NCBI GenBank assembly: GCA_965246715.1
Contig: CBDFFH010000022.1
Coordinates: 32,001-96,000 of the forward strand
Direction: 5' to 3'
DNA: 64,000 bases
From: Chamaesiphon sp.
Lineage (GTDB): Bacteria > Cyanobacteriota > Cyanobacteriia > Cyanobacteriales > Chamaesiphonaceae
Shown here in pieces: positions 11,233 to 63,404 of the stretch. A program made the translations under genes and the position numbers. A model generated the notes under the pieces. It ran no database searches, had not been told where the DNA came from, and saw only the letters and a program-made list of their open reading frames with translations. Each line of letters starts with the position of its first letter. Positions within the stretch are counted from its first letter, which is position 1.

Positions 11233-11339
11233 TACTTGTAGTGATAAATTAGGGGTAGATAAAGATCGATAGTCAATTGTTAGTGGTGAATTGTCAATCA
11301 AGCTATTGGTAGTTAGTAACCGAAGGTCGGGTATGCTGA

Positions 11340-11523
11340 GAGGATATCGGAAAAGCTGCTAGCGGTTAAAACCGCCGCCATCGCTGTAAAGTCTGCCTGT
11401 CTTGGCGCGCTAAACCTGGAGGAAACCTCCAGAGCGCTCGCCGCTCCGCAGACTAAGGTTTTGTACCTGTAGCCGCGATTTCAATCGCTAGGCTACCAAA
11501 TCTGGGACTTTTCAGACACCCTC
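11340..11523. mobile_element. MITE with imperfect TIRs and 3-bp TGA target duplication, carrying several palindromes
   Basis: Left GAGGATATCGGAAAAG, right CTTTTCAGACACCCTC; TGA at 11337-11339 and 11524-11526; internal hairpins. Confidence 0.7.
11399..11445. mobile_element. 47-bp CT-flanked hairpin mini-element (copy A)
   Basis: CT|GTCTTGGCG..CTGGAGGAAACCTCCAG..CGCCGCT interrupts the palindrome AGTCTGC-CTCC-GCAGACT; same ends as copy B at 61960. Confidence 0.7.
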
Positions 11524-11648
11524 TGAGGTTGGTGGACGTACCGATAAAAACCAACTAGCTAATATTGCAACAATTTTGCCACGAAATTGAGTCTAGATCT
11601 CTTGAGAGTTCAACCCCGCTTCTATACTAGTCGATCGATTTTCGTAAT

Positions 11649-24519: not shown

Positions 24520-27500
24520 ATGAACTCAGACAATTATTTTGTGAACCAGACAATTGAATCGCTACTAACACCACAGCAATTCACAAATCCCCTAGAATTG
24601 CCAGCAATTTCTGGGCGCAACTTAATCAGTCCGCACACAATTGCATTTGTCGATTCCAATATTGATGATGCAATGACAGTCATGGCAAACCTCACATCGG
24701 ATGTCAAAATTCTCCTCGACCCCACCCGAGATGGGATTGCCCAAATCACTGAAGCCCTCAAAAACTATCAGGGATTGTCAGGCATCGATATTATCTCCCA
24801 CGGCAGTGTCGCCAATCTACAATTAGGAAACAATTCGCTCAACGCAAACTCTCTATCACAATATACTAACGCTCTCCAGCAATGGAAAACAGCCCTCACT
24901 TCAGAAGCAGATATCCTGATTTACGGCTGTAATGTTGCTGCGGGAGAATCTGGGCAAACCTTCATCAATAAGATCGGTAATGTAACTGGGGCCGATGTTG
25001 CAGCATCTATAGATACTACAGGCAATGCAGCCAAAGGTGGCAATTGGACGCTGGAGTATGCCACAGGCAAGATTGAGACGGCTACGCCTTTTACAGATTT
25101 CTTGATGAATTCTTACCAGGGAATTTTACCTAGTCTGTTCACGACTCAAACCCCAGTCCGAACCAACTTAACAGATGGGACGGGCAGTAACGGAGATTAC
25201 GAGTTGGGGATGGAATTTCAAAGTGCCAAGAGCGGCCAAATTAACGCCATTCGGTACTACAAAGCCGCCAGCGAGACTGGCACTCATATCGGGAAAATTT
25301 GGTCGAGTACGGGGCAAGAACTCGCTAGTGTCACCTTCGCCAACGAAACCGCAGCGGGATGGCAACAGCAGACATTAGCAACGCCGTTAACCATTGCCGC
25401 GAATACCAACTATGTCGTCTCAGTTAACGCCAATCAATATTATGTCACGACCAATAATGGCATTGCGACGACCATTACCAATGGGGACATCAGTGCAATT
25501 GCTGATGGGAGTAACGGGGTCTATAACGAGACACCCAGCACTTTCCCCACTCAATCCTATCAAAACAGCAACTATTTCCGCGATATTGTCTTTACGCCCG
25601 TTAACGCCCCAGCCGCAAATGGGACGATCTCACTGAGTGGCACTCCAACTCAAAATCAAATCTTAACCGCAACGATTTCCGATAGTGATGGTTTGAGTGG
25701 AGTCACCCCGGCCTACCAATGGCAACAAAGTACTAACGGTACGACTTGGACGAATATTACCGGAGCAACCAGTCAGGCATTTACCCTAACGCAAGCCCAA
25801 GTTAGCAACCAAGTGCGAGCCACAGCTTCCTATACCGACCCACTAGGTAGCAGTGAAAATCCGATTAGTCCAGCCACAGCTGCGGTCGTCAACGTCAACG
25901 ACCTGGGAATAGTCGCCATTGCCGGGACAACAGCAGTCGGACAAACGCTCAGTGCCAACGTCACCGATGTAGATGGATTAACTGGAGTCACACCCACATA
26001 TCAATGGCAGCAAAGTACTAATGGTACGACCTGGACGGTGATTGGTGGAGCAACTAGTCAGATATTTACCCTCGCACAAGCACAAGTCGGCAACCAAGTG
26101 CGCATCAATGCTGTCTACACTGATGCTTTAGGTGGTAATGAAAACATTCTCAGTCCAGCGACAAGCGCAATTACCACCGCTGCCGCTACTGAAACACTGT
26201 TCACGACTCAAACCCCAGTCCGAACCAACTTAACAGATGGGACGGGCAGTAACGGAGATTACGAGTTGGGGATGGAATTTCAAAGTGCCAAGAGCGGCCA
26301 AATTAACGCCATTCGGTACTACAAAGCCGCCAGCGAGACTGGCACTCATATCGGGAAAATTTGGTCGAGTACGGGGCAAGAACTCGCTAGTGTCACCTTC
26401 GCCAACGAAACCGCAGCGGGATGGCAACAGCAGACATTAGCAACGCCGTTAACCATTGCCGCGAATACCAACTATGTCGTCTCAGTTAACGCCAATCAAT
26501 ATTATGTCACGACCAATAATGGCATTGCGACGACCATTACCAATGGGGACATCAGTGCAATTGCTGATGGGAGTAACGGGGTCTATAACGAGACACCCAG
26601 CACTTTCCCCACTCAATCCTATCAAAACAGCAACTATTTCCGCGATATTGTCTTTACGCCCGTTAACGCCCCAGCCGCAAATGGGACGATCTCACTGAGT
26701 GGCACTCCAACTCAAAATCAAATCTTAACCGCAACGATTTCCGATAGTGATGGTTTGAGTGGAGTCACCCCGGCCTACCAATGGCAACAAAGTACTAACG
26801 GTACGACTTGGACGAATATTACCGGAGCAACCAGTCAGGCATTTACCCTAACGCAAGCCCAAGTTAGCAACCAAGTGCGAGCCACAGCTTCCTATACCGA
26901 CCCACTAGGTAGCAGTGAAAATCCGATTAGTCCAGCCACAGCTGCGGTCGTCAACGTCAACGACCTGGGAATAGTCGCCATTGCCGGGACAACAGCAGTC
27001 GGACAAACGCTCAGTGCCAACGTCACCGATGTAGATGGATTAACTGGAGTCACACCCACATATCAATGGCAGCAAAGTACTAATGGTACGACCTGGACGG
27101 TGATTGGTGGAGCAACTAGTCAGATATTTACCCTCGCACAAGCACAAGTCGGCAACCAAGTGCGCATCAATGCTATCTACACTGATGCTTTAGGTGGTAA
27201 TGAAAACATTCTCAGTCCAGCGACAAGCGCAATTACCACCGCTGCCGCTACTGAAACACTGTTCACGACTCAAACCCCAGTCCGAACCAACTTAACAGAT
27301 GGGACGGGCAGTAACGGAGATTACGAGTTGGGGATGGAATTTCAAAGTGCCAAGAGCGGCCAAATTAACGCCATTCGGTACTACAAAGCCGCCAGCGAGA
27401 CTGGCACTCATATCGGGAAAATTTGGTCGAGTACGGGGCAAGAACTCGCTAGTGTCACCTTCGCCAACGAAACCGCAGCGGGATGGCAACAGCAGACATT

Positions 27501-29754
27501 AGCAACGCCGTTAACCATTGCCGCGAATACCAACTATGTCGTCTCAGTTAACGCCAATCAATATTATGTCACGACCAATAATGGCATTGCGACGACCATT
27601 ACCAATGGGGACATCAGTGCAATTGCTGATGGGAGTAACGGGGTCTATAACGAGACACCCAGCACTTTCCCCACTCAATCCTATCAAAACAGCAACTATT
27701 TCCGCGATATTGTCTTTACGCCGAGTAATAATAGTTTGCCACCTAATGGCACCATCTCACTCACTGGTACCCCCACTCAAAATCAAACCTTAACTGCAAC
27801 TGTCGCCGATACTAGTGGATTGACTGGAGTTACCATCAATTATCAATGGCAACAAAGTACTAACGGCACCACCTGGACGAATATTACAGGTGCCACTAAC
27901 TCCACCTTCACCCTCGCTCAAGCCCAAGTGAATCAGCAAGTGCGGGTGACAGCGTCCTATACTGATGCTCTTGGCAGTAGTGAAAATCCCATCAGTAAAG
28001 CTACGGCTGCGGTCGTCAACGTCAATGATGTAGGTACGGTCATCCTCAAGGGTAGTGCGACAATTGGACACGATCTAGACGAAACGGTTTTGGATATCGA
28101 TGGGCTGTCTGGAGGCACCATCAACTATCAGTGGCAGCAATTTGTCAACAGTACCTGGAGCAATGTTGCTGGAGCAACATCCAAATCACTAACCCTAACC
28201 ACGGCACTATTAGGACAACAAATACGGGTGTTGGCAAGCTATATTGATGCTCTGGGTAGCAGTGAAAACGTCACCAGCTCAGGGGTTACGGTTGCAGCTC
28301 AAAATGCGATCGTCCTAGAAAACCAAAAAGCTGGAACAATAGATTGGGCGATTCCGAGTATTGGTCAGGCAACCACTGAAATTGTCGGTTATGGAGACGC
28401 GACAAGCATCAATAAAGGACAATCAATTAATTTTAAAGTCTCCCTTGCCCAAGCTGGACAGTACCAGATCGACGTGTATCGGTTGGGCTACTATGGTGGT
28501 GCGGGCGGTCGGCTTGTCACCAGTGCAACTGGGCTGAATGGTGTGGCTCAAGCAGGTCCGACAACCGATCCAAACACTAAATTAGTCGAGTACAACTGGA
28601 ATACTTCTTACACATTGCAAACTGGTAATGACTGGACTAGTGGGCTTTACTTTGCTAAGTTGACGGACAGTACAACGGGTAAGCAAAATTACATCCAATT
28701 TACGTTGCGGGATGATAATCGTCCTAGTGATATAGGGTTCCAAGATGCCATTACTACAGCGGCAGCCTATAACAACTATGGTGGTTATAGTGTGTATGAT
28801 TTCAACAGTACGGGCGGACAACGTGCTTACCAAGTATCATTCGATCGACCATTCCAATACAATAACTCTACTGCCTCAGAGCAATTCAACAATACATTGG
28901 CATGGGAATATAACATGACTCGCTGGCTGGAATCCCAAGGTTATGATGTTTCCTACTACACTAATCTAGATGTAAGTAACAATCCCTTACAATTGTATGC
29001 CCAGAAGACCTATCTCTCGGTTGGTCACGATGAGTATTGGTCGAAGTCACAGCGCGATAACGTCGAAACAGCGCGAGACAATGGTACCAACTTGGCCTTC
29101 TTCTCAGCGAATACTGGCTATTGGCAAGTGAGGTTCGACCCTTCCAGTACAGGACAAGCTAACCGCGTGATGACCGTCTACAAAGATACTTCTGGGATTG
29201 GGATTAGTTCTTCACTCGACCCGATTGCCGCAACCAATCCCACGGCCGCAACTACGCTGTTTCGTAGCCCTGAAGTCAATCGACCAGAGAATGCCTTATT
29301 GGGAGTTGGGTACATTGGAGATAAGGGTACTAATAATTTTTACAGTGGCTTTGACTACGTGGTCAGCAATGCCGCCGATCCTTACTATGCGAATACTGGA
29401 CTCCAAAATGGAGATAGACTGCCAGGCTTAGTGGGCTATGAATGGGATGGATTGCTCAACAACGGCTTGACACCTAGTGGTCTTGTTGTTTTATCTCAAT
29501 CACCAGTACAACCACAAGGCTCGACACCACTTCTGCCTCCTGGAACTAGTACAACTATTTCGAGTGCTGTGCGTTACACAGCAGCTAGTGGCGCGAAAGT
29601 CTTCTCCACTGGATCTATTCAGTGGGTGTGGGGACTAGATAGCTATGGAGTACCAGGGTATCAAGCGAATAATCGGGTTCAGCAAATTGCGGTTAATGTT
29701 CTCAAAGATATGGGAGCAGTCCCTCAAACTCCAAATGCTGGTATTACCGTTTGA
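24520..29754 (+). CDS. Large extracellular protein: DUF4347 + 3x DUF4082 + Ig-like repeats + N,N-dimethylformamidase beta-subunit-like domain
   Basis: ISHGS..LQLG / IYGCNVA..G / GGNWTLE (DUF4347); YELGMEF..IRYYK..NYFRDIVF (DUF4082); YRLGYYGG.G, AYNNYGG.S.Y, VSFDRP, SVGHDEYWS, GYEWD. Confidence 0.85.
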   Translation: MNSDNYFVNQTIESLLTPQQFTNPLELPAISGRNLISPHTIAFVDSNIDDAMTVMANLTSDVKILLDPTRDGIAQITEALKNYQGLSGIDIISHGSVANLQLGNNSLNANSLSQYTNALQQWKTALTSEADILIYGCNVAAGESGQTFINKIGNVTGADVAASIDTTGNAAKGGNWTLEYATGKIETATPFTDFLMNSYQGILPSLFTTQTPVRTNLTDGTGSNGDYELGMEFQSAKSGQINAIRYYKAASETGTHIGKIWSSTGQELASVTFANETAAGWQQQTLATPLTIAANTNYVVSVNANQYYVTTNNGIATTITNGDISAIADGSNGVYNETPSTFPTQSYQNSNYFRDIVFTPVNAPAANGTISLSGTPTQNQILTATISDSDGLSGVTPAYQWQQSTNGTTWTNITGATSQAFTLTQAQVSNQVRATASYTDPLGSSENPISPATAAVVNVNDLGIVAIAGTTAVGQTLSANVTDVDGLTGVTPTYQWQQSTNGTTWTVIGGATSQIFTLAQAQVGNQVRINAVYTDALGGNENILSPATSAITTAAATETLFTTQTPVRTNLTDGTGSNGDYELGMEFQSAKSGQINAIRYYKAASETGTHIGKIWSSTGQELASVTFANETAAGWQQQTLATPLTIAANTNYVVSVNANQYYVTTNNGIATTITNGDISAIADGSNGVYNETPSTFPTQSYQNSNYFRDIVFTPVNAPAANGTISLSGTPTQNQILTATISDSDGLSGVTPAYQWQQSTNGTTWTNITGATSQAFTLTQAQVSNQVRATASYTDPLGSSENPISPATAAVVNVNDLGIVAIAGTTAVGQTLSANVTDVDGLTGVTPTYQWQQSTNGTTWTVIGGATSQIFTLAQAQVGNQVRINAIYTDALGGNENILSPATSAITTAAATETLFTTQTPVRTNLTDGTGSNGDYELGMEFQSAKSGQINAIRYYKAASETGTHIGKIWSSTGQELASVTFANETAAGWQQQTLATPLTIAANTNYVVSVNANQYYVTTNNGIATTITNGDISAIADGSNGVYNETPSTFPTQSYQNSNYFRDIVFTPSNNSLPPNGTISLTGTPTQNQTLTATVADTSGLTGVTINYQWQQSTNGTTWTNITGATNSTFTLAQAQVNQQVRVTASYTDALGSSENPISKATAAVVNVNDVGTVILKGSATIGHDLDETVLDIDGLSGGTINYQWQQFVNSTWSNVAGATSKSLTLTTALLGQQIRVLASYIDALGSSENVTSSGVTVAAQNAIVLENQKAGTIDWAIPSIGQATTEIVGYGDATSINKGQSINFKVSLAQAGQYQIDVYRLGYYGGAGGRLVTSATGLNGVAQAGPTTDPNTKLVEYNWNTSYTLQTGNDWTSGLYFAKLTDSTTGKQNYIQFTLRDDNRPSDIGFQDAITTAAAYNNYGGYSVYDFNSTGGQRAYQVSFDRPFQYNNSTASEQFNNTLAWEYNMTRWLESQGYDVSYYTNLDVSNNPLQLYAQKTYLSVGHDEYWSKSQRDNVETARDNGTNLAFFSANTGYWQVRFDPSSTGQANRVMTVYKDTSGIGISSSLDPIAATNPTAATTLFRSPEVNRPENALLGVGYIGDKGTNNFYSGFDYVVSNAADPYYANTGLQNGDRLPGLVGYEWDGLLNNGLTPSGLVVLSQSPVQPQGSTPLLPPGTSTTISSAVRYTAASGAKVFSTGSIQWVWGLDSYGVPGYQANNRVQQIAVNVLKDMGAVPQTPNAGITV
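25135..27722 (+). repeat. 1062-bp near-perfect tandem repeat (~2.4 copies)
   Basis: Units start at 25135, 26197 and 27259; the only difference I noticed is G26113/A27175. Confidence 0.95.
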
Positions 29755-57412: not shown

Positions 57413-57545
57413 GGCGTTGCTGAATTAATGTATGAAACGCACAAACAATTTTTGTAGGGGTAATGCCTCGTGCTTACCCCGCATCGATTCAGGGTACTCA
57501 CAAGGGGCACCCCTACAAAAAATCATACCCATATTCAGCAACGCC
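57413..57545. mobile_element. 133-bp MITE (TIR GGCGTTGCTGAAT) with 11-bp target duplication, carrying a REP-like pair
   Basis: AATTTGGCGTG at 57402-57412 and 57546-57556; internal GTAGGGG..CCCCTAC; an extra right TIR at 57584-57596. Confidence 0.85.
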
Positions 57546-61916: not shown

Positions 61917-61959
61917 GGCGTTGCTGAATATGGGTATGATTTTTTGTAGGGGTGCTCCT

Positions 61960-62008
61960 GTCTTGTCGTTTTTTTATTCGGGGGGAACCCCCGAATAAAA
62001 ACGCCGCT
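61960..62008. mobile_element. 49-bp CT-flanked hairpin mini-element (copy B)
   Basis: Removing it restores the uninterrupted MITE sequence (same length, 2 substitutions); ends GTCTTG / CGCCGCT. Confidence 0.8.
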
Positions 62009-62069
62009 TGTGGGTACCCTGAATCGATGCGGGGTAAGCACGAGGCATTACCCCTTGTATCCTAAAGGA

Positions 62070-62285
62070 AGGTCAAAGAGTAAAATCGTAAGACCGAGCA
62101 TCAACAGCAAAAGGGAAAGGGAAATTCGGATTGCCCCTAGGGACACCAAGCCCGTTAAGTAGATCGAATTACCTTAACCTAAACAGTGGAACCAGTCAAA
62201 GCTGGACAGTATCAGAGGTCGTCCCAAACGGGTAAACCTGCATTTACAAGGATAGTTTATCGCCACTAATTGCTGTTGAAGCAGT
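62070..62285 (+). ncRNA. Predicted bridge RNA of the IS110 element (boundaries approximate)
   Basis: Guides ATTGCCCCT (62130-38), GTAG (62159-62), ACAGTATC (62206-13) and TACAAG (62245-50) in the IS621 order; closing stems AATTCG/CGAATT and TCAACAGCAA/TTGCTGTTGA. Confidence 0.85.
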
Positions 62286-62308
62286 CCATTAGCAGATAGG
62301 AACTGGCC

Positions 62309-63301
62309 ATGAGTAATTCAAACGAAGAGTTAGACATACTCGGTATCGACATCAGCAAAGCCAAATTTGACGTAGCCTTACTCAAAAACAACGGCAAAGA
62401 CAAAATCAAAAGCAAGGTATTTGCGAATACCCCAGAAGGGTTTGAGCAATTACAGGAGTGGCTAAACAGCCAAGGAGTAACCAAACTACATGGCTGCATG
62501 GAAGCAACTAGCATTTACGGAAATGCCCTAGCCAGATTTCTAGTTGCAGCAGGATACATCGTAAGTATCGTTAATCCATCCCGTCCAAAAGCATTTGGAC
62601 GAAGTGAATTAAGTCGGACGAAAACCGATCGTGCGGATGCAAAAGTGATTGCCAGATTTGGCGCGGCATTACGCCCAGCACCCTGGACTCCTCCAGCGAT
62701 CGAAGTCGAACAACTTCAAGCTTTGGTTCATCGCTGGGATAGTTTGACTGCCATGCAGCAACAAGAGCAGAATCGACTCGAAACGGTTGACCCAATTTTA
62801 GTCGAGGCGATCGCCGCACATATTGACTTCCTCAAGCAACAAGTTGCTGCGACTCAACAACTGATTCGCGACCATTTCGATCGATCCCCCACTCTTAAAG
62901 CTCAACGAGATTTACTGATTTCGATGCCAGGTATTGCCGCCGCTACTGCAACGGTAATACTAGCCGAAATTCGCGATGTGGCTACCTTTGACAGTGCCGA
63001 CCAGCTTGCTGCTTTTGCGGGTTTGACCCCGCATGAGTTTTCTTCTGGTTCCTCTGTTCATGGCAAACCCCGTTTGTCTAAGATCGGTAACGCTCGTTTG
63101 AGAAAGGCTCTCTATCTGCCTGCGATTGTTGCTCGTCGCGATCATCCCTTGATTCAGGTTTTTTGCGACCGTCTGTTGGCTAAAGGTAAGTCGAAAATGG
63201 CGATGATTGGTGCTGCTATGCACAAACTTCTGCGCCAGGTCTTTGGTGTGCTGAAATCTCAACAACCTTTTGACCCGAATTTTCTTTCTCTTCTCTCTTG
63301 A
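62309..63301 (+). CDS. IS110 family transposase (bridge recombinase)
   Basis: DEDD RuvC-like motifs GIDISK, MEATS, KTDRADA; C-terminal GLTP...SSG catalytic Ser region; intact 330 aa. Confidence 0.96.
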   Translation: MSNSNEELDILGIDISKAKFDVALLKNNGKDKIKSKVFANTPEGFEQLQEWLNSQGVTKLHGCMEATSIYGNALARFLVAAGYIVSIVNPSRPKAFGRSELSRTKTDRADAKVIARFGAALRPAPWTPPAIEVEQLQALVHRWDSLTAMQQQEQNRLETVDPILVEAIAAHIDFLKQQVAATQQLIRDHFDRSPTLKAQRDLLISMPGIAAATATVILAEIRDVATFDSADQLAAFAGLTPHEFSSGSSVHGKPRLSKIGNARLRKALYLPAIVARRDHPLIQVFCDRLLAKGKSKMAMIGAAMHKLLRQVFGVLKSQQPFDPNFLSLLS

Positions 63302-63303
63302 CT
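63298..63303 (+). promoter_or_regulatory. -35 box (TTGACT) of the promoter formed on IS circularisation; pairs with -10 TATCCT at 62058-62063
   Basis: Joining the right end to the left end gives TTGACT-17 bp-TATCCT. Confidence 0.8.
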
Positions 63304-63404
63304 CTCAAGACAGTATCTACCGATGTTTTCAGCGATGTTTAGATCGCCGATCGTACTTGCATTCAGCAACGCTCGTAATTTCTCAATCTGAATACTCGAT
63401 CGTG

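Follow-up and report, generated by a model that had tools for sequence, protein, structure and literature searches.

The 64,000-nucleotide stretch analyzed here (the window; G000:C22:32001-96000) belongs to a HIP1-rich genome of 6.1 Mb with 45.8% GC that is cyanobacterial to judge from its genes and sequence. It carries two inserts of less than 50 nucleotides that share their ends and a central hairpin, and the question that they raise is what kind of element they represent and by what means it moves. Copy A (47 nt) occupies positions 11398..11444 and copy B (49 nt) positions 61959..62007, both on the forward strand. The initial annotation had described the two inserts with these common features, and they are confirmed in the sequence, except that both boundaries belong one base further left than originally placed. 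Copy B consists of a TGTCTT leader, a bulged hairpin and a GC tail, and it entered a C|T site without duplication. Copy A has the same ends, differs in the sequence of its stems and also entered C|T. Both copies fold far better than shuffled sequences (z -3.95 and -4.51), none of 200 shuffles being as good.

The two copies sit in different hosts. Copy B lies in the left part of a MITE (61917..62055, forward strand) that contains GTAG-tagged palindromes and is cut at CT 62054-62055 by an IS110-family element. A second MITE at 57413..57545 on the reverse strand had been proposed as the empty allele of this host, and it is, with the empty junction between 57503 and 57504; the orthologue of this MITE in the relative G011 carries the insert (L323). 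The site class of copy B is common to 13 copies, and its exact empty allele was counted up to 48 times in the genome. The host of copy A is a small element of 182 bp (11341..11522) recognized from its imperfect terminal inverted repeats and bracketed by a CTGAG duplication at 11336-11340 and 11523-11527. This whole host is missing at the orthologous site in G011 and is skipped by contigs of the sequencing runs X1 and X2, loss of the whole host being the sole change seen. Copy A probably reached its locus as a passenger of the 182-bp host. Elsewhere in the window, very long open reading frames of 2718 and 1744 amino acids (195-8351 and 24520-29754) bracket or lie within a long run of genes on the same strand.

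The inserts belong to a large family. A structure-aware scan of G000, in which a leader, one hairpin and a tail ending in C were required, returned 157 copies of the mini-element with 102 distinct sequences, compared with 5 in a reversed or complemented genome control; at least two of the 157 matches look false. The strict-pattern genome search that had been suggested at the outset gave 28 matches, a count far below that of the structure-aware scan. The unit measures 47–52 nt overall, and 47–51 nt in 150 of the 157 copies. It is built of a TGTCTT or TGCTT leader, a basal stem, a 5'-side bulge of three to five bases, an apical stem rich in GC, a three-base loop and a GC tail. The central hairpin noted initially is present, but its loop varies (among 86 distinct copies, AAA in 33, GAA in 23, and AGA in 8). 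All 22 arm types open the basal stem with a G-C pair, and the next three basal positions are paired in 43 of 66 cells, compared with a mean of 21.6 and a maximum of 35 in 5000 shuffles. Apical pairing was found in 135 of 145 cases versus 60, a figure that is too high, as the loop had itself been positioned by pairing. The stems covary, that is, the fold is kept while the sequence changes. In addition, inner and outer stems are mixed among subfamilies and the loops of some are inverted. The minus strand folds better in 55–57 of 86 copies, an asymmetry that loop composition may drive. A modular model, in which an inner unit of 21–27 nt sits within an outer unit, was tried and rejected, as no outer-only copies exist and a leader lies near 188 of 206 inner-hairpin matches; the remaining 18 look nested or truncated. 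The 47–51-mer is the unit. The terminal inverted repeats and target-site duplication of classical MITEs are absent from the mini-element, and a search of Rfam with six loci gave no match. No description of this sequence family was found in the searched literature, mostly without subscription papers, and a motif search was also empty. The earlier proposal of a structure-defined, non-coding, non-autonomous family without terminal inverted repeats that is related in kind to the small dispersed repeats (SDRs) of cyanobacteria is supported, and we are highly confident that the mini-element is a real, precisely inserting SDR-like element.

Reports exist on such small repeats in cyanobacteria. SDR1-8 of the Nostocaceae reportedly have a conserved fold with compensatory changes and a mover that is not known; they are said to range from 21 to 27 nt and to nest in heptamer repeats, in mini-transposons and in their own copies. 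The mini-element is likewise very small, non-coding, dispersed, precisely inserted and cyanobacterial, and its fold shows compensatory changes like those of SDRs. It also enters heptamer repeats, mini-transposons and its own copies, as SDRs reportedly do. On the other hand, at 47–52 nt it is about twice the SDR range and is not built of separable 21–27-nt modules. SDR5 has been described as 21 nt long and inserted precisely in HIP1 (PMC4390886, PMC5861425, PMC13756078), and the account of SDR distribution in PMC5861425 holds that no SDR-like repeat was found outside Nostocaceae. In contrast, the mini-element does not sit in HIP1 and is abundant outside Nostocaceae; it occurs in six families of the order. 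It behaves like an SDR but falls outside the SDRs in size and range, SDR1-8 having been compared by description only.

The exact ends of the element were obtained from filled and empty sites. An exact 10+10-base empty allele is present elsewhere in G000 for 94 of the 157 copies, and CGC is the exact end of 89 of them. By junction, the 94 copies divide into C|T (55), G|A (20), C|A (11), A|T (3), and others (5). At the G|A and C|A sites the element and the site overlap by zero or one base; therefore, the element is TGTCTT...CGC and nothing is duplicated. The apparent CT repeat arises because an element that runs from T to C enters C|T. Accordingly, the duplication of CT that had been claimed for the two inserts does not exist, and 39 of the 94 copies sit at non-CT sites. 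Insertion is scar-free, occurs at a single position and is without target duplication. An unbiased 10+10 indel scan, which has a chance background of about 350–480 events per length, was applied to family members only.

Target preference was examined on site classes. In G000, 154 copies reduce to 55 classes, and together with loci fetched from other genomes 269 hits give 79 pooled classes. The +1 base is T in 67 and A in 11 of the 79 classes, the -1 base is a pyrimidine in 69 (C in 45, T in 24), and the -3 base is C in 43 versus a background of 26%. C|T is the commonest pooled junction (37/79) and T|T the second (22/79), with C|A in 7/79; these are the places of a predicted cleavage. G409 of genus g155 contains 315 copies of one subfamily, with C at -1 in just 101; among 30 sampled g155 sites, C occurs at -3 in 25 and T at +1 in all 30. 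The target is a loose C-N-Y|T with consensus at three positions only. By its letters it resembles the joined ends of the element itself, CGC|T, which fits the head-to-tail pairs of copies and the insertions into the element's own bulge; tandem copies and copies self-nested within their own bulge are present in G000. Landing in palindrome loops, which the initial annotation had reported, holds for copies A and B and does not hold in general, since 26 of the 79 pooled classes lie in a strong local hairpin and both junction bases are unpaired in 11 of these 26.

Mobility was assessed against a close relative. Eighty elements were parsed from G011 and their orthologous sites were sought in G000: 40 had none, 13 were shared, 5 were precisely empty (three at C|T, one with a mismatch, and two at G|A), and 22 were otherwise different. 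Inspection of 13 of these 22 gave one precise C|A empty site, 11 differences that take in the host repeat or more, and one unpaired locus. Six precise filled and empty polymorphisms are known between G011 and G000, including the 57.4 kb MITE of the window. All six lie in multicopy repeats, and conversion may therefore account for them. Much of the spread occurs as a passenger of larger MITEs. Unique sites and genes have also been entered, with in-frame copies in MutS2, CobN (two), Pnkp and an IS4 transposase. The copies in MutS2, CobN and Pnkp add 16–17 residues, and in G010 another subfamily occupies the same MutS2 loop. Inside long open reading frames 13 of 16 copies are 48 or 51 nt long, partly by construction because a frame-breaking copy ends the frame. 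No orientation bias was observed relative to flanking genes (39 same, 41 opposite). Mini-elements also occur inside the genes of mobile elements (L102 near 1449; L124; L155; L175), namely in frame in an IS200/IS605 tnpA, in an IS110 gene that is broken (L124), in an IS607-type resolvase and in tnpB.

The pattern of the mini-element is present in 24 of 24 other genomes of the genus, with 0–1 matches in controls. Across the order it matched 41 of 201 genomes, while a control pattern matched 17 genomes once each; 20 of 30 order-wide loci that were fetched pass the fold filter, and these come from six families. High copy number is confined in the sampled genomes to the genera g1 and g155 and is low or nil in sister genera, with one match or none in g124 and g150. 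The TGTCTT type was also found in a Nostoc MAG record. Of 250 other genomes, 16 contain the 25-base apical hairpin, among them 12 of 32 in family f7, which we infer to be Nostocaceae. Outside the genus this hairpin is mostly found within a sister element of 43–45 nt with AC...TC ends (loci L029-L086; families f5, f7, f9, f12, and f22). In the sister family the preferred target bases lie 3' of the junction and read C-Y-C from +1 to +3 (26 sites). Plasmids in PLSDB gave no match to copy B. Among 120 pattern matches in viral contigs, one passes the fold filter; it is a genuine copy at C|A in a heptamer repeat (L472, IMGVR_UViG_3300022832_000028). In these comparisons the best DnaA matches in G000, G011, and G020 had E values of 6e-9 to 2e-8 versus 1e-67 in g155, and judged by these scores canonical dnaA may be missing from the three genomes.

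Our leading guess on movement, which we put forward tentatively and rate somewhat short of an even chance, is that the mini-element is moved in trans as a folded single DNA strand by a candidate HUH (Y1-type) nick-and-join enzyme. Such an enzyme would bind the hairpin and make two nicks, one following the terminal C and one preceding the initial T. The ends would then be joined into a small single-stranded circle with the junction CGC|TGTCTT, and the circle would enter exposed single-stranded DNA at a similar CNY|T site. This would account for the frequent use of element ends and of the element's own bulge as targets. Single-strand HUH chemistry yields just such a combination of a scar-free join at one phosphodiester bond, a conserved fold and a loose target. 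TnpA-REP enzymes have been reported to act on single-stranded bulged hairpins with low specificity and to cut on either side, and they cut C|T, with a Marinomonas enzyme also cutting C|A; a circle model has been proposed for them as well (PMC8266576, PMC3333891). The initial annotation had named a REP-associated tyrosine transposase as a possible mover, and in this looser form the idea has become the leading guess, although neither a RAYT nor any other Y1 family was linked to the mini-element by the analysis.

Several searches were made for such an enzyme, and no mover was found. Y1 genes are present in 26 of 27 genomes of the genus (in G000 they include C9:115803, C14:4559, C34:104298, and C36:41189), and the commonest host repeats in G000 flank Y1 genes that are subclass-1.2-like by the motifs tabulated in PMC6006769, an account in which no REP is given for this subclass. 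On both sides of these genes (L001, L002, L004, L103, L104, L106-L109) stand long direct repeats made up of compound palindromes, which are abundant throughout the genome. None of 35 Y1 loci is bracketed by the mini-element, and 26 close pairs yielded no autonomous copy. Subclass-1.2-like Y1 genes are absent from G014, both g155 genomes, g2 (0/7) and g19 (0/3). RAYT (NF047646) is absent from the copy-rich genomes G004, G010, G017, and G344, three of which are fragmented assemblies with 84–99% completeness, and it occurs in many genomes without the pattern of the mini-element. A search for IS91-type Y2 transposases in g1 and g155 gave no match. By co-occurrence none of these three HUH families tracks the mini-element. 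The leader lacks a GTAG tag as well as an A able to select T(+1) under the published guide rule, and no guide-target covariation was found over 122 site-arm pairs (p 0.14–0.95). Copies in G409 show no significant replichore bias of the lagging-strand kind known from IS200/IS605 elements (173/315, p 0.09; 151/284 when collapsed, p 0.31), on an origin that is uncertain because GC skew is flat. An apparent same-strand run of copies in G409 vanished under a fixed pattern and was not significant in the full test. No circularly permuted copies were found, so nothing there points to circles. Of 67 open reading frames beside 26 loci, 51 were scanned and gave no recurring nuclease or recombinase (TnpB-type IS twice, Uma2 once). 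A Y1-type route also leaves unexplained why the target information of the sister family lies on the opposite side of the junction.

Comparison with known single-strand systems reveals both likeness and difference. REP/BIME sequences with TnpA-REP (RAYT) are also bulged single-strand hairpins of similar size, mostly intergenic and in many copies, with C|T and C|A junctions common (PMC8266576, PMC3333891, PMC6006769). The mini-element differs in that it lacks the GTAG/GTGG tag, its unit is itself a precise insert with fixed ends, T|T junctions are common, no cognate RAYT flanked by it was found, and it parasitizes GTAG REPs. Non-autonomous IS200/IS605 (peel-and-paste) elements share with it the lack of inverted repeats and target duplication, a hairpin near the ends and oriented insertion (PMC6006769). 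However, one hairpin of the mini-element serves both ends, there is no fixed target of four to five bases, and neither guide-target covariation nor a parent IS was found. A wider reading, possible but doubtful, is that of an order-wide superfamily of single-hairpin micro-transposons with swappable ends (TGTCTT/GC, TGCTT/GC, AC/TC) around a common hairpin, which would move as a single-stranded DNA circle of 47–52 bases through an undescribed enzyme needing only C-N-Y|T.

An alternative raised in the initial annotation was a minimal donor recombined in trans at a CT core by an IS110 bridge recombinase. The neighboring IS110 (62056..63318, forward strand, IS621-type) has a recombinase reading frame at 62309-63301, and its donor ACAGTAT-CT-TGTA is matched by donor guides at about 62206-62213 and 62245-62250; it entered the host MITE of copy B at CT. 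Like the mini-element, IS110/IS621 elements have no terminal inverted repeats, often show CT on both sides of the junction and use REP-like repeats as hosts. The N|T junctions (67 of 79 classes) formally fit a cut after T. IS621 recombines at a CT core and is reported to tolerate GT, AT, and TT cores (PMC11208158), and N|T sites alone would for this reason not exclude it. An 8-base overlap with the IS110 end also exists: CAAGACAG is indeed found at 63306-63313, as had been noted, but it is part of the donor end ACAGTAT-CT and out of register with the junction of the mini-element. Against this link stands the A at +1 in 11 of 79 classes, where the junctions are hybrid (from G|A, G-T on the left and C-A on the right) and come from neither strand of a two-base CT-core exchange. 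The mini-element has no true core duplication, no fixed target and no matching bridge RNA. Copies without CT duplication, which the initial annotation itself had named as speaking against this link, are the 39 of 94 given above, and the targets (55 classes in G000, 79 pooled) are too diverse for guidance by a bridge RNA and have no consensus of 9–11 bases. The suggested scan of donor guides, with 31 of 41 overlapping IS110 loci parsed and 10 unparsed, gave 0 of 31 loci with both matching guides, and both intact IS110 families of G000 share one IS621-type donor. Moreover, IS110 matches occur in just 14 of 27 genomes of the genus and are lacking in the other 13, and the mini-element sits within and breaks an IS110 gene (L124). 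IS110 was rejected as mover because A(+1) sites occur, the targets share no long consensus, none of the parsed loci has matching guides and 13 genomes gave no IS110 match, and we regard recombination of this kind as extremely improbable. The two IS110 families themselves (window 62056-63318 and L007-L015) have different proteins, a shared donor and GTAG-REP ends as targets, and the L014 copy carries a MITE inside its bridge-RNA region.

Other means of spread deserve more weight, although each seems unlikely. Conjugative relaxases, rolling-circle Rep proteins and type IA topoisomerases make 5'-phosphotyrosine links on single strands. One of these nick-and-join enzymes of the host or its plasmids would likewise leave scar-free, single-position junctions, the same 5'-phosphotyrosine chemistry on single strands being described for HUH enzymes (PMC8266576). 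That no tested transposase family tracks the mini-element is expected for a conserved or itinerant host enzyme, whereas a universal enzyme explains poorly why copies are abundant in two genera and low or nil in their sisters, and the IS91-type Y2 search described above was negative. Type IA topoisomerases prefer C at -4, which mismatches the C at -3 seen here. Overall, this explanation is an unlikely one. Movement through a folded RNA, which would enter DNA by reverse transcription or splicing, is a little harder to credit; an RNA route of spread has reportedly been suggested for SDRs, and the conserved and covarying structure, the lack of a DNA-transposase signature and the presence of copies in genes and transcribed regions agree with it. 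The even split of orientations, the lack of an Rfam match for the six loci and the exact CGC end of 89 of 94 copies do not, and these 89 copies show no duplication, 5' truncation series or retro-type tail. Slightly less probable again is spread without any dedicated enzyme, by template switching in replication, gene conversion between repeats, and hitch-hiking in larger MITEs. In its favor, the difference from G011 at 22 of 40 orthologous loci is not that of the mini-element alone, 11 of the 13 inspected differ at host-repeat level or wider (one being precisely empty and one unpaired), the six precise polymorphisms are all within multicopy repeats, and the stems are mixed and the loops inverted between subfamilies. 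Conversion nevertheless fits poorly with non-homologous sites because it needs flanking homology that is not shared there, and the 55 site classes in G000 and 79 pooled, which include unique sites and genes, always have exact ends.

For the question of how repeats of less than 100 bases spread in bacterial genomes, this family offers hundreds of copies with exact ends, before-and-after alleles, a target rule and a predicted circle junction, so that it can be tested with an oligonucleotide of 50 bases and a few candidate proteins. If the wider reading of an order-wide superfamily is true, the system would count as one of the smallest self-targeting, scar-free insertion systems and would provide a defined substrate in the search for the mover of SDRs. 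It extends SDR-like elements beyond Nostocaceae, and such elements are shown to lengthen MutS2, CobN and Pnkp in frame and to be preferred targets of IS4. The latter was observed at least six times, where an IS4-family element of 1.48 kb had inserted at the hairpin tip of mini-elements of different subfamilies with an 11-bp target duplication (C9:58707-60189, C9:142611-144093, C37:16325-17807, C40:38977-40459, C47:165714-167196, and C49:86931-88413 in G000). These interrupted copies were ruled out as an autonomous form, as the IS has its own inverted repeats and the 11-bp duplication. Several SDR-sized hairpin modules of 21–27 nt also enter the mini-element and its hosts precisely. Examples lie outside the window at C14:33086, C2:248752, and C51:179070 of G000, and the core motifs of the modules occur 16, 100, 6, and 160 times.
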